Below, in pieces: positions 3,068 through 34,768 of a stretch of DNA of 64,000 bases (position 1 is its first letter; every line of letters starts with the position of its first letter). The translations under genes and the position numbers were made by a program. The notes below the pieces were generated by a model. It was given only the letters and a program-made list of their open reading frames with translations, was not told the DNA's origin and ran no database searches. The DNA comes from a bacterium (GTDB lineage: Bacteria > Hinthialibacterota > Hinthialibacteria > Hinthialibacterales > Hinthialibacteraceae): the NCBI GenBank assembly GCA_963662285.2, contig CAXXMV010000002.1, forward strand, positions 1 through 64,000. Direction: 5' to 3'.

Positions 3068-6000
3068 CTAGAAGCCTTTAGGAAGAATAAAAGAGTCTTT
3101 GTACCGGAAATCGAATGGAATTATTACATCCTCTGTATCTTCCAAGCCGCCAGGAATTTCCGGAATCTGAATAAATCCGTAGTGTATGCCATCCGCAGCG
3201 ATTACAAAGTATGCACGACCCGGGAGAAGAGATGCAACGAATCCTACTCCATCAACATTACCGGTGTCTTGATTTGGATCATAAGGATTTTGTTTTACAA
3301 TCGAACGATTCAATTCATCTTTAACCATAACACTAGGATTAATCGTAAAGATATTGGTTCCTTCCGGCAGCATCATAATTCCACCTAACGGGAAACTGCC
3401 TTGAAGCGTCTGGCTATCCGGGACAATGACATCTGCATCGCCCTGGAAGATGGCTTTAACCGGACCACGTTGTTTAAAGCTGAATCCGGTTGGTCCTGCC
3501 ACTTCATTGTCAGATAAATCCGTAAGGGGATTTTGCTGATCGGTTGGATCAACACTGATAAATTGTGAATCGTTAGTCGTTATTACTTGACGCATATCCA
3601 TACTAACAAGTTTCATCACGCCATCAGCATTGGGCTTAAATTCGAAATCAACAATATCAAAACCAATGGAACTCAAGAAACTGCCTTGGAATGTGGTAAA
3701 TTCAAACACCGGAGGAGCAGAATCTGTGGCATAGTATGGTTCCCTAAAGATAGCCAGGACATTGTATGGTTCCAGAGAATTCTTTTCATTAATATTCAGG
3801 TTGACCATCATGGGATCATCCATACCAATTCTTCTTGGTACGTATGTAGCCAAGCGATTGTTTCTGGTCAATCCAAGGAGATAAATAATATCTTCGTATT
3901 CAGCAGTATCAGAATCAAGAAGTTCATCCTGTTGCCGTCCATAGTTGCGAATTTCATAAAGCTCAACAAACCATCCACGGCCATCTCCAACTTCACGAAT
4001 ACTTATGGTTTGATCAAAAGTGATCCTAGTATCAGATGAAAAGAGGAACCGACCCTCATATGTTCCGCCTATTGCATCCTGTTCGACTTCAGGAACCCTA
4101 TAGAAGACAGTTGGATACCACAGCGAGAGATCAATAATAACTTGAGCAACTATTGTATCGCCTTGATTAACAACCGTGAAGTTATTGGGATTAGCATTCG
4201 AAATAGAATAGTTCTGTACTTCGTAAAGCCCAAAGAATGAATTCAGCGATTTCTGCAATCCTACAACATCCGCGCCCGTTTTATCACTGTAATCGGGCGA
4301 AACATGCGCCATTATCTGACTGGAGTTTTCTACACTGAATCCATCTATAATATCTCGTACGCTATCCACAACGGATTGCAAATTGATTGAGGTTGTCTCG
4401 GTATCGACGATAATGTCGTCATCAAGACCAGGTTGATCAGAGAAAATCAGTTGATCTGTTGGAGCAACGACATTCTCATCATTAGTCAGTATGTGCACCT
4501 TCCCACTGCCTTCAATCAAAATAATCGTGTTATCGGTATTAGGGAACAGTTTAACCTGACGTATAGTACCTGCCGGTATGGGGATATCAGAAGTCAACGA
4601 TTCCAACGTTGTCTTAACCGCCCCGCCGCCAAGAACGGTGATATTTCCATCGCTATCCGTGATAACAACATGAGTTACTGCTCCACCACTGGTTCGCAGG
4701 CTCATATCACGATAGACATCGCCTACCACAATATCACTCCAGCCGGAAATCGCGCTGTTGCCAGCGGAACTAAAAATACCGTTGCCGGTCAAGAAATACA
4801 ATACTTTACCGTTAGGAGCCAGCTCCATATCGCGATACATATCAATGCCCATTGGTTCAGGGCGAAGATCTGTATTGGCTTTACCGAGGAAGAGCATATC
4901 GCCATCACCATCCAGTACATAGATAGCGCCATTAACGAAATCGACTTCCACATCACGGGCGCTTTCGATAGTAATCTGATCTTCAGTCGGATTGCTAATC
5001 AAAACACCGCCGGATAGAGAATTTTTGTAGAAGAAAACTTCATTTTCCGGGAATTTGAAGGAACCATCTGGTTGCATGACTCTAGCAAAGATTGAACCAA
5101 GATCGCCTGAACCAATAACCTGACCATCAACCTGAACCGCTATCTGTCCAGAGAAGGTAGGCGTTACTTCCATATCGATCACGCGGGTAGTAGATTCAAT
5201 GCGATTAAACTTTGGGGTGTCACCCAGACTGAAAATTACGCCATCGTTTTTAAGCTTCACGTAATCGAGAGGATTTTTCAAATTCCCTGTTACGATCGTA
5301 CCGCCGCCATCATTGCCCTCACCTGGACTAACGGCGCTAGTTGCTATTGGACCATCAGCATAGACGTAAATCGGCTGATTAACGCCATCGTTGATTTCGG
5401 CGTAAATGTAGTATTGTTGGGTTGGATCAAAATCTTCAATATCTTCCAACATGTTCAGACTAAAGACCTGATCAAAACCTTCCCTCAATCTTGCGCCGGG
5501 CAGGAACTGACCGTTAAAATCAAGGCTGTCGGTATCGACGAATAGACGGATATCAGCAACGTCATCAGGATCAGCCGCGACGAAAGTAATATCAAATTCA
5601 AAATTCTCATCCGCCAGATTGATGCCTGAGTTGGGAGACATAAACGTGATGCTAGGCGCCACATTTATGCTCTGAACGATAATTTCGCCAGTCGTGATCT
5701 GGTTTTTACTTACATTGCGGTAAGCAGCATAAGTCATACCATAATCTGTTTCCAGGAAGGAAGTATAAGCGATGCCGCCTTCAGGCTTGGAAACCACGGT
5801 CTGATCGCCAGTATCAGGATCAGTAATAACCACAGCCGCATTCCGTTGACCTCCGCGAATTCGAACGCGGAATGTTTCGCCAACGCGGGCTACTGGTGAA
5901 GAACGTAAGACAACATAGAAATCATTGCCCTGCAATGGGCCGAAGTTTTCATCGGGAATCTGCAATTGGAACTGGTAATTCGTATCGTATTCTGCCGTTT

Positions 6001-9000
6001 CCAGGAATTGATTTAAACCCAGAGTTGCATAAGGACTGGTAATATCAATTTCCTGCGGTTCAGGAGGATCAGGATATTCAGGCTCTCCCGGCTGCTCATC
6101 TTCGCCAACATCCGCCGCCGCCGCTTCAGCATCTTCAACTGCAGTAGCATATTCTTCAATAGTTGTTCGAGCTTGCTCATAGGCGCTATTCAGAGTATCC
6201 CTGATGCCGCTTACATAATCGCCTATTGCATTATAATCGGTTAATGAAATATCAAAACCAAACTGATGATATGGCGCCGTTGCTAAACTCTCGCCTTGCG
6301 GATCCTCTGCCTCTGCCCCTTCGACTTCGCTTACCTGGACCACCATTGGCGTCCATCCTACCCGGACAAAACCACGCATCGGATGAGGAATGCGAAGACC
6401 GCCATTCATGGAGAGCGCAAATGTACGGCGAACATCACCATCAGGATCACGAACCATCCTGATGCTGTCTTCACTGTCAGGGGTAAACGCAATCAACCAG
6501 ATTATATCTCCTGTATCCGCTGTTTCGATAAAGAGATCATCAGGATAATAGGGAAACGCTTCGAAATCGCCTCCGCCAGAGCGGAATGCGGCAATCAAAT
6601 CCAGCAATCCTGTACGCGGTTCCAACCAGCGAGTCATGCCCTGATTGTATGTTGAACCAGAGAATCCTCTAGGGAATATATCTGATCGAAAAGCCTGGTA
6701 TTGGCCTATATTCAATACTCTCATATCCAATTCTGCAAAGTAACTGCCTTCGCTTAAATTGAGCGGTAATACGCCGCCATCAACTAATGTAAGTGGATTA
6801 TCAGCCGGCTGGATTGCGTCGATGTATTCCTGATATTTTTCCTGGCTGTTTGGCGGGAAAACGTATGCATTCGCCCCAGTGCCGCCGAATCGATCACGGT
6901 CTGTGGGAAAATAATGGTCCATCGCGTCAAATACGCCATTGATACCAGCAGGAGTCATATCACCCAAATCTTCATCAATAAGACCATCGCCGTCATCATC
7001 CTGGAGGTTATGCCATTCTTCATCAACCAGACCATCTCCATCATCATCTCTATTATTTCCGCTTGAAGTATCGTCATCATAATATAGGGCAATGGAATGA
7101 TTAGATACAACACGGGAAAATTCAACACCAATGCCTAGCTGGGCAGGAATGGCGTTGAAAAGCAGTGGATTAAATATAACGCTCTGCGTTCCAGGCAGGA
7201 AATCGATCTGGACTTCGCCAAACACAGTACTCTCTGTAAAGAAGGTATCGAAAACATTAAACTCTATTGATTCGTGGTTATTTACTAAAAGTGGATTCTG
7301 TCCGAAATCTTGCGCATCAATACCGATCACTGCCTTTGGAGGCGAGCTTTGAGAACTATCCAACAGAATATTGTTGTTTCCGGCGAATTCGCCCTCTCCT
7401 GGTTGAGTCAGGTCCTGATAACTAAAACGGGGACGGGGGCGTCCGATCAGGGTATAAGTCATGCCAGTGTTGGGACGTCCATACCCGATGCTCGAAACCG
7501 AGCGGAGAGATTCAACATTATCCAGTTCGTTATTAGTAAAGCCTTCAACGTTTGTACCAACCTTAATGTCATTGGGCTGGATAAAAGGAATAAAGGAATC
7601 GAGACTTCGCAGGTTATCGCTTGTGCGAACAGCGAGATATATTTCAGGACCGACATTATTACCGGTTCGCGTACCTGGAGTCAGCAAGTCGCTCATGGCA
7701 TTGTTTTTGCCGACAGGCAAAACATAAGTGAATCCTTGCAGAAGATTATAATTGAAGAGATCCTCTGAGTTTGTTCTTCCATTGCCTTCAGTATATTCAA
7801 AAAGGTAACGAATCTGACCTTCGGTTAATCCGAGATAAGGCCGCAGAACATTAACCAGCAGATCGAAGAAATAGCAGTCGGGATCTTCGGTGCATTCCAG
7901 TGATCCATAAGGAGGACGAGGTTCTTCCGCGGCTTCTGGTATTTCACCAATACCCATTAGCAGCGCGGCGAGGTTATCATCGCCAAACAACATGGGGATA
8001 ACTGTTTTACCACTATCACCACCAACCGCTGCAGGAAGCATACGGCGCATCAGCTGATAGAAAGGAGAATTTGGATCAGAAGCAGATTCAGGACTGATTT
8101 CAAAGTTTTCGATGCTATATCCATCAGAATCAAGACCGATTAAATGGTCAACGCCTTCATCATACTTTCCACGAACGCCGCCTAATTCACGATAGAGGAA
8201 CATTCCCCCCGCAGAATCAGTGCGAAGCGCTTTAAAAATATCCTGAGAAACAACCCGAGGAGTTAAACCATAAGCGCCCGGTTCTCTTGGGCCGTAAGGC
8301 ACATAACTGGTTACGTGGTTATTATAATCATCACCGCCAATTATGAATGTCCGCATAGGGAAACCATACATATCAAGCGGCATAGTCATTGGCATTATTG
8401 TTTCTCCATCACCTGGAGCAACAGTAGCCAAAATTTCACCGGTTTCCATGTTGATTGGGGTATTGTAGAACCAGGGGCTATAGAAATAGGTTGGTTGAGT
8501 CATAAAAAATACCTGTTCCATTAACCCCGACGGCATAGCTGCCTGATAACCCGCCGATCCTGTGAGATAAAATGATTGTGAAAGGTTAGCGATCAGCCGT
8601 GCGACAGCGCCAAGATTGATGCCAAGCCAGTTGATGCGAATTTCTTCGATAAAATAACCCTGATCCTGACGGCCAACCATATCTATACCCAGAACAGTTG
8701 TTGCTTCTGAACTGGCATCAATGCGATTGTTATTTTCAACTTCAGTAATCAGGTTGGCTATTTGAACAATATCACCTTCGAAGATGGAGGGGACTGTAAA
8801 CTCAGGAGTTAAATCAGCAAAAGCATCGCCAGGGAAACGATCCGGGTAAATTGTATCGCTCACTAAGGTTTGGCGAATATCTTTGATGCGAATGCCATTT
8901 GCGGGAATATAAGTTTCAAAGCGGTCGCCGTGCATCAAATTAAGACTGGTGCGGGCGACTACGTAGAAGTCAGCAAATTGATCCTTAAAGAATGGCAATT

Positions 9001-9532
9001 GCACATTGGGACTGCCAGGTAAAGGTCGAAAAGTTATGGTATAACGACCTGGAACAACCGGATCGGCTTCAACAATAGGTTTTTCCAGAAGATCAATGGG
9101 CAAATCTTTGCTTTGATCCTCAACAGAATAATTAAATCCACGTTGTGATTCGCTTTCCTTAAAAAGCGACAAACCGCTATTGATAGCGGAAGTGGATAGA
9201 TCGAGGAAATCTTCTTCGATATCCAAGCCGATACGGCCTTCTGTTTTATCTTCGATCACAACCGTTAACTCAGCCAATTCCTGTAAACGAAAAACTGGCA
9301 TCTTGTTGGGTTCGTTAAACGGAAAGACAGAGATAGGAATGCTTAACAACGCCGTGCGATTGGAAAGAGGAGGAATTCCTGCGGGGATCACTTCCACTTC
9401 TTCACCGACCACGTCTCCACCATCTTGCGCCCAAACCGGCATCGTATCCGGTAAGAACATAAGTACGCCGAGAGCGACAAAGGCCATATTCAGCATAAAC
9501 ATCGGAAATCTTCTATTCATGTTACTCCTCAT
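3068..9532 (-). CDS. Very large acidic secreted/surface protein (about 2150 aa) with repeated domain, Ca-binding DxDGDG motifs, propeller-like and NTF2-like regions
   Basis: Long uninterrupted ORF with a signal peptide (RRFPMFMLNMAFVALGVLMFLPDTMPVWA-Q). SD-like motifs favour ATG 9532 or 9520 over GTG 9559. Two DDDGDGL(V/I)DE motifs. Confidence 0.75.
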   Translation of the reverse strand: MRSNMNRRFPMFMLNMAFVALGVLMFLPDTMPVWAQDGGDVVGEEVEVIPAGIPPLSNRTALLSIPISVFPFNEPNKMPVFRLQELAELTVVIEDKTEGRIGLDIEEDFLDLSTSAINSGLSLFKESESQRGFNYSVEDQSKDLPIDLLEKPIVEADPVVPGRYTITFRPLPGSPNVQLPFFKDQFADFYVVARTSLNLMHGDRFETYIPANGIRIKDIRQTLVSDTIYPDRFPGDAFADLTPEFTVPSIFEGDIVQIANLITEVENNNRIDASSEATTVLGIDMVGRQDQGYFIEEIRINWLGINLGAVARLIANLSQSFYLTGSAGYQAAMPSGLMEQVFFMTQPTYFYSPWFYNTPINMETGEILATVAPGDGETIMPMTMPLDMYGFPMRTFIIGGDDYNNHVTSYVPYGPREPGAYGLTPRVVSQDIFKALRTDSAGGMFLYRELGGVRGKYDEGVDHLIGLDSDGYSIENFEISPESASDPNSPFYQLMRRMLPAAVGGDSGKTVIPMLFGDDNLAALLMGIGEIPEAAEEPRPPYGSLECTEDPDCYFFDLLVNVLRPYLGLTEGQIRYLFEYTEGNGRTNSEDLFNYNLLQGFTYVLPVGKNNAMSDLLTPGTRTGNNVGPEIYLAVRTSDNLRSLDSFIPFIQPNDIKVGTNVEGFTNNELDNVESLRSVSSIGYGRPNTGMTYTLIGRPRPRFSYQDLTQPGEGEFAGNNNILLDSSQSSPPKAVIGIDAQDFGQNPLLVNNHESIEFNVFDTFFTESTVFGEVQIDFLPGTQSVIFNPLLFNAIPAQLGIGVEFSRVVSNHSIALYYDDDTSSGNNRDDDGDGLVDEEWHNLQDDDGDGLIDEDLGDMTPAGINGVFDAMDHYFPTDRDRFGGTGANAYVFPPNSQEKYQEYIDAIQPADNPLTLVDGGVLPLNLSEGSYFAELDMRVLNIGQYQAFRSDIFPRGFSGSTYNQGMTRWLEPRTGLLDLIAAFRSGGGDFEAFPYYPDDLFIETADTGDIIWLIAFTPDSEDSIRMVRDPDGDVRRTFALSMNGGLRIPHPMRGFVRVGWTPMVVQVSEVEGAEAEDPQGESLATAPYHQFGFDISLTDYNAIGDYVSGIRDTLNSAYEQARTTIEEYATAVEDAEAAAADVGEDEQPGEPEYPDPPEPQEIDITSPYATLGLNQFLETAEYDTNYQFQLQIPDENFGPLQGNDFYVVLRSSPVARVGETFRVRIRGGQRNAAVVITDPDTGDQTVVSKPEGGIAYTSFLETDYGMTYAAYRNVSKNQITTGEIIVQSINVAPSITFMSPNSGINLADENFEFDITFVAADPDDVADIRLFVDTDSLDFNGQFLPGARLREGFDQVFSLNMLEDIEDFDPTQQYYIYAEINDGVNQPIYVYADGPIATSAVSPGEGNDGGGTIVTGNLKNPLDYVKLKNDGVIFSLGDTPKFNRIESTTRVIDMEVTPTFSGQIAVQVDGQVIGSGDLGSIFARVMQPDGSFKFPENEVFFYKNSLSGGVLISNPTEDQITIESARDVEVDFVNGAIYVLDGDGDMLFLGKANTDLRPEPMGIDMYRDMELAPNGKVLYFLTGNGIFSSAGNSAISGWSDIVVGDVYRDMSLRTSGGAVTHVVITDSDGNITVLGGGAVKTTLESLTSDIPIPAGTIRQVKLFPNTDNTIILIEGSGKVHILTNDENVVAPTDQLIFSDQPGLDDDIIVDTETTSINLQSVVDSVRDIIDGFSVENSSQIMAHVSPDYSDKTGADVVGLQKSLNSFFGLYEVQNYSISNANPNNFTVVNQGDTIVAQVIIDLSLWYPTVFYRVPEVEQDAIGGTYEGRFLFSSDTRITFDQTISIREVGDGRGWFVELYEIRNYGRQQDELLDSDTAEYEDIIYLLGLTRNNRLATYVPRRIGMDDPMMVNLNINEKNSLEPYNVLAIFREPYYATDSAPPVFEFTTFQGSFLSSIGFDIVDFEFKPNADGVMKLVSMDMRQVITTNDSQFISVDPTDQQNPLTDLSDNEVAGPTGFSFKQRGPVKAIFQGDADVIVPDSQTLQGSFPLGGIMMLPEGTNIFTINPSVMVKDELNRSIVKQNPYDPNQDTGNVDGVGFVASLLPGRAYFVIAADGIHYGFIQIPEIPGGLEDTEDVIIPFDFRYKDSFILPKGF

Positions 9533-9783
9533 TGGACAGTACTCTCCCTTTTGGGACACGAAATTCTATTGTTGACGCTTGATCATACCGCCTCCTCTGA
9601 AAAAAAAGGAGACCTCCATCATTCCGTGCATCTCTATTGGGCATAAAAACCCATAGGTCTTGAACAGACCACTTAAACCAAATCAAATGATGCTCTTAAT
9701 TAACAAGGATTCACAAAATAATAAAAAAAACATAAATTGTTATTACCTTGCCTAAGACGTTACCTGCAGTTCGACTGACCGTA

Positions 9784-14122: not shown

Positions 14123-16216
14123 CTATTCAGGTTTTTTCAAATCCGGTTTCACCAACTTAAAAAGTTGAATGCTCTTTCCCCTTGCAGCCGACCGCTCCAT
14201 TAATTGAAAGAACTTAGGATTATCCAAATAATCGAGATGTCCGAGCAGCCTTGTAATAGGATGAGAATCTTCATCAGGAATATACAGGTAATAACCCACT
14301 CCGCGTTTCAGCAACTCTTCATGAAATTCAGGGTAAGGCATGCCATAAAATGGCGTTAATCCACAATCATCCAAGTGAATAATACTAATATCATCGCGAT
14401 AAACGTGATACCGGTTGTCATGAGAAAGGATAATTGCATTCTCTTCCAGCGAGCGGTTAATATAACGCCAGACCGGCGCTTCGAGAGGAAAACTGAAACG
14501 ATAGAACTCTAAAGGCGATAATCCTGGATAAGCAAAAACCGGCATAGATGGATTTGGAACTTTCGGCCCCATCATGGAAATTGAAACGCCTGGAACCAAT
14601 ACGGCGCAGATAAGTGTTACGCCATAGAGATTGATGATTTTTTCATTTTGGATGCGGGATAAAAAACGCGCGACATAAAGGGAAAGAATTGGAACTACCG
14701 CGAGAGTATGATACCAATATAAACCGGAAATGATGTATTGATAGACGAAATATAGCGCTAATAATATCCCGGCAAAGACAAAAACAGGTTCTTTCCTCTT
14801 CCAACCCAGAAGAAACGCAGGAAGCATTATGCCAGTCAAAAGCGGAGAAAAACGCCAATCTGTTTGAAAGAAAACCAAACTGTTAATAACCCGCGCCAAT
14901 AATGACGGTCCATATTGCGCCGCACCCATGCCATGAGCAGTCCATTCTTTTTGGCATGAAGCCAGTACTTCCAGATTAATATTCTTGCCCCCGAAAATTT
15001 CCGGGAAAAAAGCATAAACCGGATTACCCGTCACCAGGTAATTACGTACATACCAGGTCAATCCTAATCCAAACCAGAATAAGAAGGCGCCAAGCAACTG
15101 TAGCCATTTAATATTAGAATCAGCAACAATACCCCGGCTGCGCCATAGAATGGCCAGAAACATTGGAGGCCATACAATCCAGCCCAGGTAATTGATATGC
15201 GGAAAGATTGCGCATACCGCCATTAAAGGCATAACCGTTCTGAGAGAAGGTTTGTTGAGGAATATCTCAAGGAACAATAAAAATGCCGCCGTGTAGTACA
15301 TAACCAACGCATAATCAGAGGCATATACGAAATAGGTTGAGACAAAAGGAATGCTGCGGAATACCAGCGTAGCTAATATGGCGCTCAATCGGTTGCGGAA
15401 CAACCTCATAGATAAATGATAAAGAACCAGGATGCTTCCCAACCCAGCTAAGGGCGGTAATAACTGGCCATAGATATCTGACCAATGATTAAAAATGGTT
15501 GCGGTAACCGCCTGATGCAGCGGGTATAGATGAGGATAATTGGCGCCCAAACCCAATCCAACCTGGAGGCAGGCCAGAATAGGGAATCCTCCCTGAAGAT
15601 ACGTCATTTTGCCATAATGGATATAGAGGATAAGAGAATCCCAATACTGAACAGGAAAAAGCAGGGAATGATAAAAATTGAGGATAGTAAGCCCGGCGAG
15701 CATCGCCCAAGCGCACCAAAATAAAATTTGCTGAAAGTGGTTCTGAGATGATTCAACTTTGACCGATTCTTTAACAGGCGCCTCTTCTGAAGCCCATCCC
15801 CAAACCTTTTTTAATCCCCATAAAAGAACGATTAATCCAGCAAAACTGAGCAATACCGTCCAACGATTAAGCAGAAACGGGATTGCCCATAACTCCAGGA
15901 TGAAAGTCGAAAGCCCTACGCCCATAAAAACGGCGACAATCCACTCGATAAGTTTTGGCAGCCGGATGCATAACCTCAAGAATAAAAAGCCTACACCTGC
16001 GCAGAGAGAGAGCGAGACAATTTCATACAACATATCCACGCAAAATCCCTCCGGCAGCCGATAATTAATCGAGAACAGAGAGCGCACGAATGCGGGGAAT
16101 ACCTCCAGAAGCAATGGAGGATTAATCGGTTGGATATAAAAAATATAAATGCTGGCTCCCAACCATCCAAGAATGGCGATGGAAACCAGCATACTTTTAT
16201 TCAAGGCGATTTTCAT
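14123..16216 (-). CDS. GT-C fold (ArnT/PMT-like) integral membrane glycosyltransferase
   Basis: Many TM helices; WDSLILYIHYGK acidic first loop, NYPHLYP, WYVRNYLVTGNPVYAF, small periplasmic C-terminal domain. Confidence 0.7.
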   Translation of the reverse strand: MKIALNKSMLVSIAILGWLGASIYIFYIQPINPPLLLEVFPAFVRSLFSINYRLPEGFCVDMLYEIVSLSLCAGVGFLFLRLCIRLPKLIEWIVAVFMGVGLSTFILELWAIPFLLNRWTVLLSFAGLIVLLWGLKKVWGWASEEAPVKESVKVESSQNHFQQILFWCAWAMLAGLTILNFYHSLLFPVQYWDSLILYIHYGKMTYLQGGFPILACLQVGLGLGANYPHLYPLHQAVTATIFNHWSDIYGQLLPPLAGLGSILVLYHLSMRLFRNRLSAILATLVFRSIPFVSTYFVYASDYALVMYYTAAFLLFLEIFLNKPSLRTVMPLMAVCAIFPHINYLGWIVWPPMFLAILWRSRGIVADSNIKWLQLLGAFLFWFGLGLTWYVRNYLVTGNPVYAFFPEIFGGKNINLEVLASCQKEWTAHGMGAAQYGPSLLARVINSLVFFQTDWRFSPLLTGIMLPAFLLGWKRKEPVFVFAGILLALYFVYQYIISGLYWYHTLAVVPILSLYVARFLSRIQNEKIINLYGVTLICAVLVPGVSISMMGPKVPNPSMPVFAYPGLSPLEFYRFSFPLEAPVWRYINRSLEENAIILSHDNRYHVYRDDISIIHLDDCGLTPFYGMPYPEFHEELLKRGVGYYLYIPDEDSHPITRLLGHLDYLDNPKFFQLMERSAARGKSIQLFKLVKPDLKKPE

Positions 16217-27702: not shown

Positions 27703-29820
27703 ATGAGCATAGAGAAAATCGCAGCAATGACCGCCAGCGCAGAAAGGCGCGCCAAATACGGCGTCACGGATATTCCCTTCGAGTTGGTCGCAGATTTCAC
27801 GCCCAAGGGCGATCAACCCGCCGCCATAGATCAGCTAGTAAAAGGACTCGAAAATAAAGAGAAATTTCAGACGCTGGTTGGCGTAACCGGCAGCGGTAAG
27901 ACCTTCACTATGGCTAACGTCATAGCCCAAGTGAACCGCCCTACATTGATCGTGTCCCATAATAAAGTTCTGGCGGCGCAGTTGTACAGCGAATTCAAAG
28001 AGTTCTTCCCCAATAATGCAGTGGGCTATTTCGTTTCGTATTATGATTTCTATCAACCGGAAGCGTATGTTCCATCAAAAGATATTTATATCGAAAAAGA
28101 AGTCACTATCAACGAAGAAATAGAACGTCTGCGGCTTGAGGCTACCACTAATCTTATGGAGCGCCGGGATGTAATAATCGTGGCTTCGGTTTCGTGCATC
28201 TATGGCCTGGGTTCGCCGGAAGATTACCGCGAAATGGTGTGCCCCATTGAAACCGGCGCCTGTCTTCCGCGTCAAAAATTGCTTCGCCGCCTGGTAGACC
28301 TGCAATACACCCGCAATGATATGGATTTTAATCGAGGCGCCTTCCGCGTCCGTGGAGATGTCGTTGAGGTCTATCCCAGTTATGGAGATCATCCGTTGCG
28401 TATTGAATTGTGGGGCGACGAAGTAGAGCGTATCCTGGAAATTAATCAGATAACTGGTGAAGTGCTTGGCGAACACGGCAATATCACCATCTATCCGGCG
28501 CGGCATTACGTAACGGCGCCGGAACGCCTGCTCAAATCAATGACAACGATTCGCGAAGAGTTGCGCGAACATCTTCAAGCGCTGCGACAGCAAAACAAAC
28601 TGCTCGAAGCCCAACGGCTCGAACAACGCACCATGTATGACCTTGAAATGCTACAGCAAACCGGCATCTGCCAGGGCATCGAGAATTATTCACGCCATCT
28701 CGACGGACGTGCGCCGGGAATGCCGCCCGCAACTCTGATCGATTATTTCCCGGATGATTTTCTGTTAATTGTTGACGAATCACACATAATGCTGCCTCAA
28801 GTACGGGGTATGTATGGCGGCGACCAAAGCCGTAAGAAAACTCTGGTTGAATATGGCTTCCGCCTGCCTTCAGCGCTGGATAACCGCCCACTTTCCTTCG
28901 ATGAGTTTTGGGGCGCCATTAACCAGGCTATTTTCGCCTCAGCCACCCCATCCGATTTTGAACTTGAAAAAAGCAGCGCGCCGATTGAACAGATTATCCG
29001 TCCAACTGGTTTGGTTGATCCAAAAGTTACCATCCGCCCGGCCACCGGCCAGGTCGATGACCTGATAGAAAGAATTCATGATCGCATCAAACGCGGCGAA
29101 CGGACGTTAGTCACAACCCTTACCCGGCGTATGGCGGAGGATTTATCCAATTACCTGGTTGAACTGGGCATCAAGGTGCGCTGGCTCCATTTCCAGGTGG
29201 ATACCATAGAGCGCGCCGAAATTCTTGAAGGTTTACGCTCCGGGGAATTCGACGTTATAGTAGGCGTCAATTTACTGCGCGAGGGACTCGACCTGCCCGA
29301 AGTGTCGTTGGTCGCCATAATTGATGCAGACCGCGAAGGTTTTTTACGCGACGAACGATCTCTGATCCAGACCTGTGGACGCGCGGCGCGTAATGTGGCC
29401 GGCGAAGTTATTATGTACGCTGATAAGCCGACCAAATCGATGGACCGCGCTATAGCAGTGATGGAACGGCGCCGGAAAATTCAGTTGGAATATAACCAAA
29501 AACATGGCATTATTCCCACAACAATCCAAAAAGCAGTTCGATCCATACTCGAAACGCGTTCCTCCAAAAAACGCGAAACCGAAGAGATGCTTTACAAAAT
29601 CGCTGATTCGGTTGAAATGAAGGGCAAAACCAAGAAGGATGCTATCGCCGAATTGAAACGGCGCATGGTGGAAGCGGCCAAAAATCTGGAATTTGAAAAG
29701 GCGGCGGTGTATCGTGATAAAATCGTTGAATTGGAACAAACAGGACAAGATGACAATGAAAAAAAATCGCTCATGCCAAAACGGAAGCCATCCCGCCGAT
29801 CAAAACCGAAGCAGGAATAA
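27703..29820 (+). CDS. uvrB: Excinuclease ABC subunit B
   Basis: [47 protein letters not shown]-terminal UVR domain LEFEKAA..RD. Confidence 0.98.
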
Positions 29821-31594
29821 CCGTCGCTTTCTTATCTGCCTGGCAATGCTGGGCTGCATCATTTTCACCCAGGCCAACGCCTGGTGCGTAACCTCGGAAA
29901 CTCCGGTAGCCATTGCTGAAGTTAAAATCGATCTTCCCATACCCGACGCCGATCCGGTAGGAGTAAGCCACTCCATCACAATAACCGGCTCAGACCCGCT
30001 GGAATCTATCGAGGCGGCATTACAGATAAATCATGCGGCGCCGGATCAACTGGTGATTACCTTGACCAGCCCCTCCGGAGATTCGGTAATATTGCATAAT
30101 AGAAATTCGACCGACGCGGTTCCCTTCTCTCCGGTATATGAATCGAATAATCCCGCTGCAGAATCATTATCAACCTTTATCGGAAGCAACCCCCAAGGCG
30201 ACTGGACTATTAATGTTGCTGATTATGTTGCAGGCCAAACTGGTTTCCTGACCGCGTGGGGTTTGCGGGTCAGCCCGGCTTCGCTGCTTCAACCCCCCAC
30301 GCTGGCGCCTGTTCCACTACCAGACGATATGTATGCGCTTGCCGCCACTTTGATTGTTGATTCTACTATCACATACGCCGCCTCCGCAGATGCCAATGCT
30401 GATGGATTAGACGATCTGTTTATTCTCTCAGAATCGGGGAACAAGGTTTTTATCTATTTTTCAAACGGCGCCGAACTTTTAGCCCCGCCATTAACTTATG
30501 CAATAGATGCTCCTCAACTGATCGCATTGGATGACTTGAATGATGATGGCCGGTTGGATTTTGTTATAGCGGCCCGGGAAGAAAACGTTCCGGTTGTCAC
30601 CATTACCGTATTTTTAGGAAACACGGCTGGTGGCTTCAGCCAAGGCTTCACTGCGCAGGTGAATACTTATCTGGATGACCTGACCATATTAGACGTCAAT
30701 TCTGATGGAATTGCGGACATCATTGTCGGGGGAGCACCTCATCTAGTTGAGGGTGTCGGCGATGGATCATTCAAGCCAGCTATTCAGCTCGTGCATTTGG
30801 GACAATCATTTCTGGCGCATGGTGATATCAACGCTGATGGGGAAGAAGACTTTTATGTAACCATATCCCGTGGGGGAACATCATCCCATTACGATCCCTA
30901 TATATTATTTGGTTCTGAAGATATTTCTTTTCCCCAAAGAGATATTATTACCTTAGATGATGATCCATCAGACTCGTTTACTGCTAATCTGTTAGCAACC
31001 GGTTCAATTCAGTTTATCTCAATTTTAAAAGCAAATGAGCAGAGATCGAGCCATTCCATTAACGCCATTTCAGGATCAGGCCCGGGAGCGATGATGGTAT
31101 CAGAGATTCATGCTTCGACCGAAGTTCTCAGGCTTCCCGTGACGCCTATTGATATAAACGGCGATGGATTGGATGAACTGCTCTATTTATCAGCAACAGG
31201 CATCCAAGCCTACCAATATACAAATAATGAGTTCGGCGGCGTCAGCACAGAACTTTTCCAGAAACAAAATCCTCAAAAAATTATCCCTGGAAATTATTAC
31301 ACCGAAGATAGCGTTGGGCTGGCAGTCGTAACATCAATTTCTGAGATTATGCTGTTACGCTCAACCGCAGGAGCATTACCGACTCCGACGCCTTTTACTG
31401 AACCAACGCCCACCCCGACGCAGTTCTTGTTCCCGACGCCAATATCAACCACGCCTACCCCGATACCGCCGACGGCGACGCCCACGCCGGTTTCGCCAGC
31501 AGGGATTAACCCCGACATAAATGGCGACGGGCGCGTCGATAGATTGGATTTATTATTATTGATGAAGCATTGGGGTCAGGAAATAGCGCAATAA
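29750..31594 (+). CDS. Secreted proprotein-convertase P-domain + FG-GAP/VCBS repeat protein with Pro/Thr linker and dockerin-like tail
   Basis: Signal peptide ending ANA-W; P-domain ([18 protein letters not shown]...GDWTINVAD...G.L.AW); repeated DxNxDGxxD motifs; PTPTP linker; [20 protein letters not shown]. Start uncertain (29750/29756, or 29846). Confidence 0.8.
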
Positions 31595-31650
31595 TATTAA
31601 AGAAAAACATTATTGATATTATTGCGCTATAGAAAACTGAACCGATGGTT

Positions 31651-34290
31651 TTATTCAATATCCTCACCCGAAACAATATCCTCAGTGGTTACCCGTAGGA
31701 TTTCTTCAAATGAAGTTACGCCGGATAATATTTTCAGGACTCCCTCTTCACGCAAAGTTTTCATTCCTCCTGAGCATGCCGCATCCCGCATATCAAGAGT
31801 ACTGGCATTATTTTCTATCAATCCACGAACCTCTCTATTAGGAACCATCATTTCATAGATGCCCGTTCGACCGATATAGCCCGTATTAGAACACTCCTTG
31901 CAGCCTCTAACGCGGAAAATGGGTTGGCCTTCGAGCAGTTTTCCTTCGACTCCAAATGCTTTTAATTCCCGTGCCGTAGCGGTAGATTGCTTCTTGCAAT
32001 GGGGGCAAAGTTTGCGTATTAAGCGCTGGGCTACAATACACATAATTGAAGAACTGAGCATTTTGACATCCACCCCGATATCTATCAAACGCGATAGCGC
32101 CGTGGAGGTATCAATGGTATGCAAGGTAGAAAAAACCAGATGCCCGGTAAGCGCTGCGTTTACCGCTATAGCAGCTGTTTCCTGATCCCTGATTTCTCCA
32201 ATCATAATTACATCAGGGTCTTGACGGAGGATGGAACGCAAAGCAGTGGCGAAAGTTAATCCCGTCGCGGTATTGTGTTGCACCTGGTTGATGCCGTTGA
32301 GTTCATACTCAATAGGATCTTCTACAGTAATGATATTTTTCGATCCATCATTGAGGTATTGTAAAGAGGTATACTGGAGCGTGGTTTTTCCACTGCCAGT
32401 AGGGCCAGTAGCCAGAATTAATCCATGAGATGACGAAATGGCTCTTCGATAATCCTCCAGCGCATCAGGCCTTATACCCAGACGATCCAAAGGCGCCTTG
32501 GCTATCTGTTTGTCCAACAGACGCATAACCACTTTCTCGCCCAACCGGGTTGGAATGGTTGAGACGCGAACATTGGTCTCCTCTCCAATCAAGACGCGTT
32601 GAAAATGGCCATCCTGCGGCAAGCGCTTCTCCGCGATATTGAGATTACATATAACTTTTATGCAGCTAACCAGAATGTTATTCAAGCCGCCCTCAATGGA
32701 GATGGATTCAGTCAAGACTCCATCCACTCTATAACGAACCAGGATTTTACCTTCTTCCGGTTCAATATGGATATCGCTGGAACGGATCTTTTTTCCATAG
32801 ATCATGATAAGATAGAGAAAATTGACCATTTGCTCCCGCTGAGCATCATCATGAGCTGAGTTCGAAAGCTCGCGATTTCGCGCCATGACCAGCGCTTGAT
32901 TCTGGATAACATCAGGCAAGGAAAATGGCGGTTTTATTTGCACTTCGCAGAACGGGCAAATATCAAAATCGTAATTCTCAAACAACTCATAGTTATCGAT
33001 TGCGCGGTCGCATGATGGACAACGCGTGCGAGGCTCTTCTCTTCTCCAGCGATCAATGAAATAGAAGATCAAGCCAAAAATACCGGCGTAATTAACAATT
33101 TTACGCCAGTTATAATAAATCACTTTGCGTTTGGGTAGATCACGAATGAGTAGTTTCATCGGGATATACCAGTAAATCATAAAGATGCCGAAAATAATAG
33201 CGATATACTTCAATGCGTTAAGAATCTTGGGGAACGAAACGGATACCGTCCCCTTGGTTAAATCCGTACTGAACTTTTTTATCGATTTCCATGAGCCGCT
33301 GAACCACTGTCCAACTTTCTGAGTAGTACTTGGAACTGGAGTTGGAATCGGCTCGGGAACATAAACTGGTCGCGGACGCGGAGTTGGAGTTGGTTGCAGA
33401 GCGCGTGCGGCTCTGGCAATAAGATTCTTGACCCGACGCGCGTCGCGAGAAGAAAGAGTCGAAGCATCTATTTTGGATAAGTAGTCCGTGGCTTGTTCAT
33501 ACGCATTATTATTAAAAGCCATTGTGCCCAGGTAATATAAAGCCATCGAATTATCTGGATCACGCTTTATAGCTTCCAACAAGGCATTTTCTGCAATTTT
33601 ATTATTAGTACTAGAGCGCTTAAATTCATTTTCTCCCCATTGGAAATATAGTTCAGCAATTCTTTTTTCAAGATTCCGGGCTATTGGAGCGCCCGGATAA
33701 TTTTCAAATACTATGGAGTAATGATGGATAGACTGTTCGTAATTGCGCCGCAGAACCTGCTTTTGACCTTCCTCAAAATGCGCCTGAGCTGTCTTCTGAT
33801 CTAAATCAATTTTGGCGTTTTGCAAAAGCGAAAGCAGATGAGAATCAGATATTTTATGCTTGAGAGATTCAATCTCCTTAATATCTTCCAGACCTTGAGT
33901 TAGTGAATCATGCCCACCCAATGCCTGGATATACTTTCGTATTGCGTTTTCCTGCTGAGTAAGGATGGCGTTCTTTTCCGCTTGCGATGGAGAGAGCAAC
34001 AATGCATCGGAATAAAGCGCTACCGCATCATTATAACGATTTTGCAATTCCGCCGCACGCGCATTTGATAAGATATTGGAAACATCCGAGCCTTTGGCCA
34101 CCCGCTCAACATCGCTCAGTTTATAGGAAAAAACGCCTCCGGACGTTTGAATACTAATAGCATCGCCATCCTGGCTGCGAATGATGCCTTCTATTTTCTG
34201 GCCATTTTTAAGATGTATAACATCAGCCGACAAATCAGCAGCCGAGACTAATAGCACTAAAACAAAGCTAATCCAATATAAAAGTTTCAC
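31651..34290 (-). CDS. GspE/PilB-family secretion/pilus ATPase fused to signal peptide, TPR region, TM anchor and double zinc ribbon
   Basis: C-terminal about 390 aa: SSDIHIEP, RYRVDGVL, EKRLPQDG, GEKVVMRLL, Walker A GPTGSGKTT, TVEDPIE, LRQDPDVIMIGEIRD, TGHLVFSTLHT, CPHC/CKEC. The N-terminal about 480 aa is unrelated to usual PilB N-domains. Confidence 0.9.
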   Translation of the reverse strand: MKLLYWISFVLVLLVSAADLSADVIHLKNGQKIEGIIRSQDGDAISIQTSGGVFSYKLSDVERVAKGSDVSNILSNARAAELQNRYNDAVALYSDALLLSPSQAEKNAILTQQENAIRKYIQALGGHDSLTQGLEDIKEIESLKHKISDSHLLSLLQNAKIDLDQKTAQAHFEEGQKQVLRRNYEQSIHHYSIVFENYPGAPIARNLEKRIAELYFQWGENEFKRSSTNNKIAENALLEAIKRDPDNSMALYYLGTMAFNNNAYEQATDYLSKIDASTLSSRDARRVKNLIARAARALQPTPTPRPRPVYVPEPIPTPVPSTTQKVGQWFSGSWKSIKKFSTDLTKGTVSVSFPKILNALKYIAIIFGIFMIYWYIPMKLLIRDLPKRKVIYYNWRKIVNYAGIFGLIFYFIDRWRREEPRTRCPSCDRAIDNYELFENYDFDICPFCEVQIKPPFSLPDVIQNQALVMARNRELSNSAHDDAQREQMVNFLYLIMIYGKKIRSSDIHIEPEEGKILVRYRVDGVLTESISIEGGLNNILVSCIKVICNLNIAEKRLPQDGHFQRVLIGEETNVRVSTIPTRLGEKVVMRLLDKQIAKAPLDRLGIRPDALEDYRRAISSSHGLILATGPTGSGKTTLQYTSLQYLNDGSKNIITVEDPIEYELNGINQVQHNTATGLTFATALRSILRQDPDVIMIGEIRDQETAAIAVNAALTGHLVFSTLHTIDTSTALSRLIDIGVDVKMLSSSIMCIVAQRLIRKLCPHCKKQSTATARELKAFGVEGKLLEGQPIFRVRGCKECSNTGYIGRTGIYEMMVPNREVRGLIENNASTLDMRDAACSGGMKTLREEGVLKILSGVTSFEEILRVTTEDIVSGEDIE

Positions 34291-34345
34291 AAACAGTTCC
34301 TCTGTAAATAGAATTCTATTTTCTTTAAAAACAAAATATACACTT

Positions 34346-34462
34346 GTACTCTGACCAACTAATTATGTCAGGCAACCTCGCACCCTCGCCCCACGGGATA
34401 GGGCTAGGGTAAGGGGGAATTACAGAAAACCACCTGACAAAAGAAACTGGTCATACCACTAG
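34346..34462. repeat. MITE-like element with about 27-bp imperfect TIRs enclosing a CCCTC.CCC/GGG.AGGG palindrome
   Basis: Left gtactctgaccaactaattatgtcagg versus right reverse-complement gtggtatgaccagtttcttttgtcagg; interior ccctcgccccacgggatagggctagggtaagggg. Confidence 0.55.
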
Positions 34463-34768
34463 AGCGACTCTAAACTTATATTCGCTTATTATCACGCTTA
34501 GTCTTCGAAAAATGCAATCTTTTCTGAGCTTTTCGAATCGCCGCTCAAAACGTTATTATAAAAACCACTTAAAAAATGGCGCTATTCAGTCAGATATGTC
34601 TATTGCAAACGCCATATAATACCACCCTGGTCTAGTTAATCGCCCCTGCTATGTATCATTATCATAAAAAAGAAGACATACTTAACAGTATCATTCACTT
34701 ATAAAGTCGTCTACAAAATTTATATCTTTATACTATCAAACGAATTAAAGAGATATTTTATTCGATGC

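Follow-up and report, generated by a model that had tools for sequence, protein, structure and literature searches.

A conserved GspE/PilB-type ATPase fused to a TPR-like region and a putative membrane anchor in Hinthialibacterota and Candidatus Sumerlaeota

Results

Architecture of the Anchored ATPase

The stretch of DNA analyzed here (the window) comprises 64,000 nucleotides from a bacterium of Hinthialibacterota (GenBank assembly GCA_963662285.2, contig CAXXMV010000002.1, positions 1 to 64,000). On its minus strand lies a gene for a GspE/PilB-type ATPase, in which the ATPase is preceded, within the same open reading frame (ORF), by a signal-peptide-like segment, a small beta domain, a helical TPR-like domain and a putative membrane module (Table 1). 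We refer to its product as the anchored ATPase. The protein has 879 amino acids and starts with GTG, which is the earliest start codon of the open frame, and the plus strand across 31651-34290 is rich in stop codons. An initial annotation, made from the letters of the window, had read this region as one ORF encoding a signal peptide, a small beta domain, about 230 residues of TPR-like helices, a Pro-rich linker, one transmembrane helix, a PLDc_N-like segment, a double zinc ribbon and a complete GspE/PilB ATPase. The ORF was borne out exactly, and the signal-peptide features, the beta domain, the TPR-like helices, the linker and the ATPase motifs were all recovered, whereas the description of the membrane segment and of the zinc ribbon had to be changed.

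The N-terminus shows K2 followed by a hydrophobic core of 13-15 residues ending with LSA, and all 17 close homologues have A, S or G immediately before the conserved D-[VT]-I-x-L-K-N-G. Orthologous ORFs open at this hydrophobic segment in all 17 cases examined, several of them with a stop codon shortly upstream. Read from sequence alone, the features of a Sec-type signal peptide are thus present (basic n-region, hydrophobic core and small residue at -1). In the whole protein, three hydrophobic segments were found (residues 3-17, 362-382 and 398-412). The small beta domain is strand-rich and carries the motif DVIHLKNGQKIEG. In the AlphaFold2 (AF2) model its strands are placed at residues 23-64 with low pLDDT (predicted local distance difference test) values of 53-61, and its match with the NCBIfam model Lepto_7_Nterm is weak (32 bits, below the cut-off of 43). 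The combination of signal peptide and beta motif also opens many other proteins of unrelated length among the phmmer hits.

For the helical domain, two Pfam TPR models scored above their cut-offs (TPR_16, 37.3 bits vs. 32.7; TPR_2, 28.5 vs. 27), with the models placed at residues 77-101 and 229-274. The profile of the N-terminal half matched only TPR proteins in the PDB, the best natural one being BamD (E = 1.6e-9). In the ESM Atlas, residues 1-500 gave only generic TPR clusters below 0.8, and no usable match was obtained for residues 300-480. Built from an alignment of 17 sequences, the AF2 model (mean pLDDT 73.7) reaches good confidence in the ATPase and in the helical domain (74-89), but is poor in the membrane region, the linker and the beta domain.

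The C-terminal part is a T2SSE ATPase (Pfam PF00437 at residues 501-866, 411.9 bits vs. a cut-off of 24.9), in which Walker A (GPTGSGKTT), Asp box (TVEDPIEYEL), Walker B (DVIMIGEIRD) and His box (TGHLVFSTLHT) are all intact. The tetra-Cys zinc site (CPHC and GCKEC) is also present, and its Cys residues are invariant in 17/17 close homologues. The best relatives in the PDB are PilB of Geobacter (5zfr, E = 6e-108) and GspE of Vibrio (4pht and 1p9r); the PDB alignments (E from 1e-102 to 6e-108) start at the N2 domain of PilB/GspE and run to the end. The NCBIfam equivalog cut-offs were missed (GspE, 505.1 vs. 630.25; PilB, 476.2 vs. 675.65), and the matches begin only at model position 98 of 486 for GspE and 172 of 564 for PilB. 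The protein therefore has the N2 and C-terminal domains but lacks N1; no Pfam match for N1 (T2SSE_N/GSPII) was found on it at E <= 1.

Between the N-terminal half and the ATPase, H2 (about residues 356-382) is the most hydrophobic internal segment and corresponds to the single transmembrane helix of the initial annotation, but a second conserved hydrophobic helix, H3, is also present. This short helix of 15 residues lies where a PLDc_N-like segment had been proposed. By eye, the module resembles PLDc_N (PF13396) in its hydrophobic helix, basic loop and second hydrophobic helix with Gly and Tyr. However, PF13396 is absent from the 11 families matching the window segment at E <= 10, so the module was not filed as a PLDc_N member; PF13396 is also absent from the 25 families most often matched by 13 diverse members. 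In the following segment, C424, C427, C445 and C448 are invariant in 13 diverse and 17 close members. As these are the only four invariant Cys residues at CPSC/CPFC, there is one putative zinc ribbon and not a double one. All Pfam zinc-ribbon matches are sub-threshold, the best for the window protein being Zn_ribbon_15 (E = 0.005).

Table 1. Coordinates of the gene for the anchored ATPase and of its segments in the window.
Feature	Coordinates	Strand	Remarks
Whole gene, membrane-anchored GspE/PilB-type ATPase (membrane anchoring predicted)	31651..34290	-	879 codons + stop; orthologues
Shine-Dalgarno-like GAGGA	34298..34302	-	7 nt before GTG start
Residues 1-22, signal-peptide-like, putative cleavage LSA/DV	34225..34290	-	Position -1 A/S/G in 17/17
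Residues 23-66, small beta domain, conserved D-V-I-x-L-K-N-G-x-x-I-E-G motif	34093..34224	-	
Residues 67-298, helical TPR-like domain, 11 helices	33397..34092	-	AF2 pLDDT 74-89, Pfam, PDB profile
Residues 299-322, Pro-rich linker PTPTPRPRPVYVPEPIPTPVP	33325..33396	-	AF2 pLDDT < 50
Residues 323-355, juxtamembrane helix, invariant W329	33226..33324	-	Alignment and low-confidence AF2
Residues 356-382, H2, main transmembrane helix (predicted); invariant W374, Y375, P377	33145..33225	-	
Residues 383-397, basic loop RDLPKRKVIYYNWRK, probably cytoplasmic	33100..33144	-	Charge over 51 members
Residues 398-412, H3, short hydrophobic helix; invariant G403, G406, Y410	33055..33099	-	Probably embedded, non-spanning
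Residues 413-456, basic stretch and one putative four-Cys zinc ribbon (CPSC...CPFC)	32923..33054	-	
Residues 457-500, helical connector into N2 domain	32791..32922	-	
Residues 501-866, T2SSE ATPase (N2 + C-terminal domain)	31693..32790	-	All catalytic motifs and tetra-Cys

Conservation and Distribution of the Fusion

A word-indexed search with residues 1-470 returned 16 further full-length proteins (874-951 aa, 42-64% identical over the N-terminal half), all of which carry PF00437 and align in every segment. Where source labels are given for these homologues, they read Candidatus Omnitrophica/Omnitrophota; a passage in PMC9324843 places OLB16/Hinthialibacterota formerly in Omnitrophica/Omnitrophota, which is taken only as a lead. 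Using the N-terminal half as a query, one match each was obtained in 24 of the 35 species genomes of the window's phylum (the match in genome G015 is split over a contig end). Matches were found in 17/19 genomes of the window's family, in 2/2 and 4/4 genomes of two sister families of the same order, and in 0/9 genomes of three more families of the class. A profile of the H2-H3-zinc-ribbon module from 13 diverse members recovered the identical 24 genomes, again with one match each. The two genomes of the window's family that gave no match are 85-86% complete, and four of the nine other non-matching genomes are at least 90% complete.

Run exhaustively against 1.84 billion cluster representatives, phmmer with residues 1-470 gave 156 matches at E <= 0.001. 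When family records were counted as those with CxxC...CxxC followed by Walker A within 260 residues, 51 were obtained among 167 proteins, and the architecture was found in about 49 clusters at 50% identity. The 49 individually listed members are mostly 700-1000 aa long, with a signal-peptide-like start, the beta motif and a Pro-rich stretch before the module, and the strict patterns of Walker A, Walker B and His box occur together in 40 of them. Scanning species genomes with a module pattern from five sequences yielded 7 confirmed loci, all from Candidatus Sumerlaeota (Sumerlaeia or Sumerlaeaceae); 10 further matches in unrelated taxa, weak and restricted to the zinc ribbon, were set aside. 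Within Sumerlaeota, 62 of 75 genomes match the N-terminal half plus module of the protein from one of these genomes, nearly all with one match and mostly in open frames 700-1000 aa or so in length. When the module of one member, P0023, served as query, a word-indexed search found 5 unnamed proteins. Across Sumerlaeota and one order of the window's phylum, the gene is close to universal and occurs as a single copy.

The initial annotation had asked for the same architecture in related genomes, which was found in both phyla, and had named homologues split into two genes as a counter-case, which was not seen, the full-length homologues being single ORFs of about 850-950 aa. Since the fusion is conserved across genomes, no stop, frameshift or misjoin is indicated, and its check for a chimera likewise came out in favor of a genuine gene. 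Separately assembled single contigs from sequencing runs X1 and X2 cover 31300-34442 without a gap and are identical to the window throughout; because X1 and X2 represent one sample, possibly the source of the window, this agreement is not independent. With uninterrupted orthologous ORFs in 24 genomes of the phylum and 62 genomes of Sumerlaeota, it is hardly conceivable that assembly or annotation joined a TPR gene to an ATPase gene, and no observation pointed to such a joint. Two apparent joints (32207/32381 and 32334/32512) were rejected, as they belong to other contigs sharing conserved ATPase motifs and not to the contig of this gene. A third run from another study, X3, contained only two identical 151-nt pieces of the N-terminal part and short conserved bits, from which no habitat is inferable, and there was no RNA dataset among the sequencing runs matching the gene.

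The relationship between anchored and soluble ATPases was analyzed by a maximum-likelihood tree of the ATPase core (quick search, LG+G4, unrooted), including 38 anchored members and the 6 soluble paralogues of the genome. Eleven of the 49 anchored members were omitted (ten near-duplicates or degenerate close homologues, and P0063). The anchored and soluble groups fall on opposite sides of one branch among these 44 ATPase domains (SH-aLRT, the Shimodaira-Hasegawa-like approximate likelihood ratio test, 99). The tree thus shows an old fusion and not one that arose recently in this genome.

Gene Neighborhood

Upstream of the gene and on the same strand, after a gap of 478 nt, lies a sigma-54-type response regulator gene. 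Downstream there is a convergent gene for an FG-GAP/P-domain/dockerin protein, followed by UvrB and glycosyltransferases. In the product of the convergent gene (29693-31594, plus strand), a P-domain of proprotein-convertase type is combined with FG-GAP repeats and a dockerin-like C-terminus. Translation of this gene probably begins downstream of the listed TTG, since from that start it would overlap the last 128 nt of uvrB. Scans for sigma-70 promoters and terminators gave chance level only, and the search against Rfam found only a chance match to a microRNA family, far below the gathering score. In the intergenic region upstream, a dispersed repeat was detected at 34380-34470 (31 matches of 26-91 nt on 7/8 contigs, blastn-short). 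Contigs of two sequencing runs break at this repeat, and several other contigs share it. Elsewhere in the window, two ORFs on the minus strand (3068-9559, 2163 aa; 14123-16216, 697 aa) show no Pfam family at E <= 1e-5.

Among 15 loci of the phylum that were compared, 7 have a gene for a secreted TPR protein and a gene with an FGE-sulfatase domain directly upstream on the same strand. The pair is tight in these loci (L027, L028, L029, L032, L033, L034 and L038), and its TPR protein shares the N-terminal beta motif. In the three loci of the sister families, the gene that follows is instead one for a polyprenyl synthetase. Pilin-like genes are adjacent to or near the orthologue in 3/15 loci, which was given little weight because the genome has 129 matches to the prepilin-type N_methyl model, mostly lone genes of about 200-250 aa. 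Linkage to platform, pilin or secretin genes is not conserved in the 15 loci or in six related loci of Sumerlaeota.

The upstream pair could point to another use for the protein: a PilB-like hexamer recruited not as a filament motor but as a membrane-bound scaffold or unfoldase for some other envelope process, for example together with the secreted TPR and FGE-sulfatase-domain proteins encoded upstream in many relatives. The lack of linked filament genes would fit this view, and so would the decay of catalytic motifs in 3/17 close homologues while the N-terminal part persists. However, the pair is unlinked in the window's own genome (C2:466183-468275) and absent from the six Sumerlaeota loci, and all motifs are retained in 14/17 close homologues, among them the tetra-Cys that typifies extension ATPases. 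We know of no non-filament role for this ATPase clade, and regard such a role as unlikely.

Type IV Filament Genes in the Genome

The genome has a very large stock of type IV filament genes, which would give the anchored ATPase components to work with. It contains 11 T2SSE-family matches (7 of GspE/PilB type and 4 of PilT/TadA type), 16 T2SSF domain matches, which represent 7 two-domain platform genes and a Tad pair, and 8 secretin matches. Four of the ATPase genes adjoin a platform gene, while three stand alone, namely the anchored ATPase and two flanking a PilT-like gene. Conversely, three platform genes have no adjacent ATPase gene (C2:666337-667599, C2:412966-413952 and C6:1545843-1546889). 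The first of these is surrounded by unrelated genes (GH116 and an XPB-type helicase) and is unusually conserved: its product is found in 35/35 genomes, at 75-86% identity within the two nearer families and at 57-63% in the families of the phylum that are furthest away. In five Sumerlaeota genomes, which have 16-22 T2SSE matches each, the anchored ATPase is one of several extension-type ATPases, so reasoning that it must be the sole motor fails there.

Discussion

Comparison with Known Systems

The closest known proteins are PilB of the type IVa pilus (T4aP) and GspE of the type II secretion system (T2SS), e.g., 5zfr, 5tsg, 4pht and 1p9r, with which the N2 and C-terminal domains align end to end and share Walker A, Asp box, Walker B, His box and the tetra-Cys zinc site. 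In place of the N1/GSPII domain of PilB/GspE, the anchored ATPase has the signal-peptide-like segment, the beta and TPR domains, the linker, the two helices and the zinc ribbon, and unlike them it is not encoded beside platform, pilin or secretin genes. Thermus PilF (6f8l, 913 aa) has a similar total length and the same C-terminal ATPase core. The long cytoplasmic N-terminal extensions of such ATPases, however, are soluble GSPII-type domains and are not known to include a signal peptide or membrane helix. The TPR helices are shared with BamD/YfiO (3qky), a match to be read as generic TPR repeats; BamD is an outer-membrane lipoprotein, as are the TPR-containing pilotins of type IV pili (T4P), PilF/PilW/Tgl, while here the TPR domain is part of an ATPase protein and would have its tether in the inner membrane. 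With GspL (T2SS), PilM/PilN (T4aP) and TcpR (type IVb pilus), the likeness is one of proposed tether role only, which is a functional comparison: these are separate proteins binding N1, and no sequence similarity to them was detected in the anchored ATPase with Pfam and NCBIfam.

A passage in PMC10191384 describes the extension ATPase of T4P and T2SS as a hexamer that is soluble in the cytoplasm and depends on other proteins to reach the membrane, and PilM, PulL and TcpR as holding the motor at the membrane via N1. No Pfam or NCBIfam model covers the whole architecture or the H2-H3-zinc-ribbon module, and full-text literature searches found no description of this architecture; in an Omnitrophota giant-gene preprint, gspE appears only as a neighbor of giant genes. 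The suggestion of a possibly undescribed variant agrees with these searches. On this basis, the protein is a known motor in an undescribed, conserved, membrane-anchored form.

Proposed Function

With moderate confidence, we propose that the protein is a self-anchoring motor ATPase of extension type, belonging to the superfamily of type IV filaments and T2SS. The signal peptide would export the beta and TPR domains to the periplasm, where the Pro-rich spacer would keep them off the inner membrane. H2 would cross the membrane from outside to inside. H3 would dip into the inner leaflet and, with the basic loop and the zinc ribbon, lie at the cytoplasmic face. Beneath the membrane, the N2 and C-terminal ATPase domains may hexamerise as in PilB/GspE. 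As N1 was removed and a membrane anchor with a stalked periplasmic domain was added, the economical reading is that the job of the adaptor is built into the motor: anchor and periplasmic arm would take the place of N1 and of the bitopic adaptor that binds it as a separate protein (GspL, PilM/PilN or TcpR). A single polypeptide would then both keep the motor membrane-bound and join it to components of the periplasm or outer membrane. Its partner would be a GspF/PilC-type platform encoded elsewhere in the genome. The initial annotation had also suggested that the motor anchors itself in the inner membrane; the conserved fusion, the loss of N1 and the charge pattern agree with this, but the topology is a prediction only.

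This topology was evaluated by charge statistics over 51 family records, in which the window protein is counted twice. The 15 residues preceding H2 carry a mean net charge of -0.31, compared with +4.04 for the loop that joins H2 to H3 and +3.10 for the stretch from H3 to the first Cys. Positive charge on either side of H3 makes both of its ends look cytoplasmic. H3 has a hydrophobic core of 15 residues, with a mean Kyte-Doolittle value below 1.0 in a window of 19 residues. The short form P0095 (529 aa) starts 20 residues before H2, with an acidic N-tail of 17 aa. A signal peptide followed by two spanning helices would put the ATPase on the same side as the TPR domain, so this topology requires a non-spanning H3; for an enzyme that depends on ATP and has two Cys4 sites, a location on that side is not plausible. 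The best reading is thus that the TPR domain is probably outside, H2 spans the membrane, H3 is embedded in the inner leaflet, and the zinc ribbon and ATPase are inside. The arrangement given in the initial annotation (TPR outside, ATPase inside) is in keeping with the signal-peptide features and the positive-inside charge, but depends on the predicted non-spanning state of H3.

Several observations weigh against the proposed motor or parts of it. With respect to topology, H3 is uniformly hydrophobic with an invariant GxxG, as expected for a helix packed in the bilayer, and could span. P0142 (691 aa), which has no periplasmic domain, carries three tandem modules of H2, basic loop and H3 before the zinc ribbon, for which hairpins are the easiest interpretation if the last H3 behaves like the first two. 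The AF2 model of the membrane region has low confidence (pLDDT 38-68). With respect to a partner, no T2SSF, secretin or N_methyl match lies inside the window, in line with the initial statement that no pilC/gspF, pilin or secretin gene flanks the ATPase; the nearest T2SSF match is at C2:412990, the nearest N_methyl match at C2:160194, and contig C2 has no secretin match. No conserved neighbor was found in the six Sumerlaeota loci. One lone platform is present in 35/35 genomes, including nine without the anchored ATPase; the second is sporadic, with clear orthologues in about 7 genomes; the third, which belongs to a small cluster of pilin genes, occurs in about 17 genomes, and 9 genomes with the anchored ATPase lack it. 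Across the 35 genomes, the distribution of the anchored ATPase is matched by none of these orphan platforms, and no partner was identified in this way. With respect to catalysis, the His box is lost and the Asp box changed in three close homologues (P0008, P0012 and P0017) and in the distant P0021; in the same proteins the Walker B Glu is replaced or its context altered, while the N-terminal half is as conserved as elsewhere. As motifs decay while the N-terminal part is kept, the ATPase is not always the conserved element. Finally, the soluble ATPases in the tree all come from one genome, so a single origin is not proven. The loci with degenerate motifs (L004, L006 and L013 for P0008, P0012 and P0017, and L019 for P0021) may encode pseudo-ATPases. 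In these lineages, part of the role of the protein appears not to need catalysis.

The hydrophobic H3 with its GxxG and the tandem modules of P0142 could also be accommodated by an inverted topology, in which H2 and H3 form a hairpin with both ends in the cytoplasm, the TPR domain is cytoplasmic and the N-terminal segment is not cleaved. The analogy with PLDc_N made in the initial annotation would imply such a hairpin, but it has no Pfam support. Moreover, the inverted form would place the loop of +4 outside and the neutral or acidic flank inside, which breaks the positive-inside rule in 51 records, and the N-terminus carries all features of a cleaved signal peptide. We therefore think this topology very improbable.

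The rates of evolution along the protein bear on a further alternative, a one-component sensor-motor, in which the periplasmic TPR/beta part senses a ligand or cue and switches the ATPase via H2/H3 and the zinc ribbon; the protein would then be mainly a regulated switch of an existing machine and not a structural replacement of the adaptor. The initial annotation had likewise proposed that the TPR region may bind cargo, a secretin or a signal and couple it to ATPase activity. Ligand-binding parts often evolve fast, and here the periplasmic part (38-58% identity) changes more quickly than the ATPase or the H2/H3 module (48-77%); the juxtamembrane module is the most conserved stretch outside the ATPase. 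The sigma-54-type response regulator gene upstream on the same strand would also fit. However, this regulator is not a conserved neighbor, and no sigma-54 promoter-like site with at most 2 mismatches was found in 34291-34768 (29 such sites in the window vs. 28.1 by chance). In addition, TPR domains usually bind proteins rather than small ligands, and no known sensor domain was detected with Pfam or NCBIfam. A sensor-motor of this kind seems improbable to us.

A more far-reaching version of the self-anchoring motor, which we consider doubtful, is that it defines a separate class of type IV filament machine, in which the motor carries its own trans-envelope alignment complex. Six stalked TPR arms would form a periplasmic cage in the role of PilMNOP/GspCLM, and one motor might serve the scattered pilin-like genes (the 129 N_methyl matches) via an unlinked platform.

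As a natural and conserved fusion, the anchored ATPase shows that a motor of this family can work, or at least persist, when it is covalently tethered, and the fusion determines the end of the motor that is turned toward the membrane. It also provides a simpler object for studying how cytoplasmic ATP hydrolysis is coupled to periplasmic events, and the lineages in which the motifs have decayed and the anchor is kept offer a natural experiment on the non-catalytic role.

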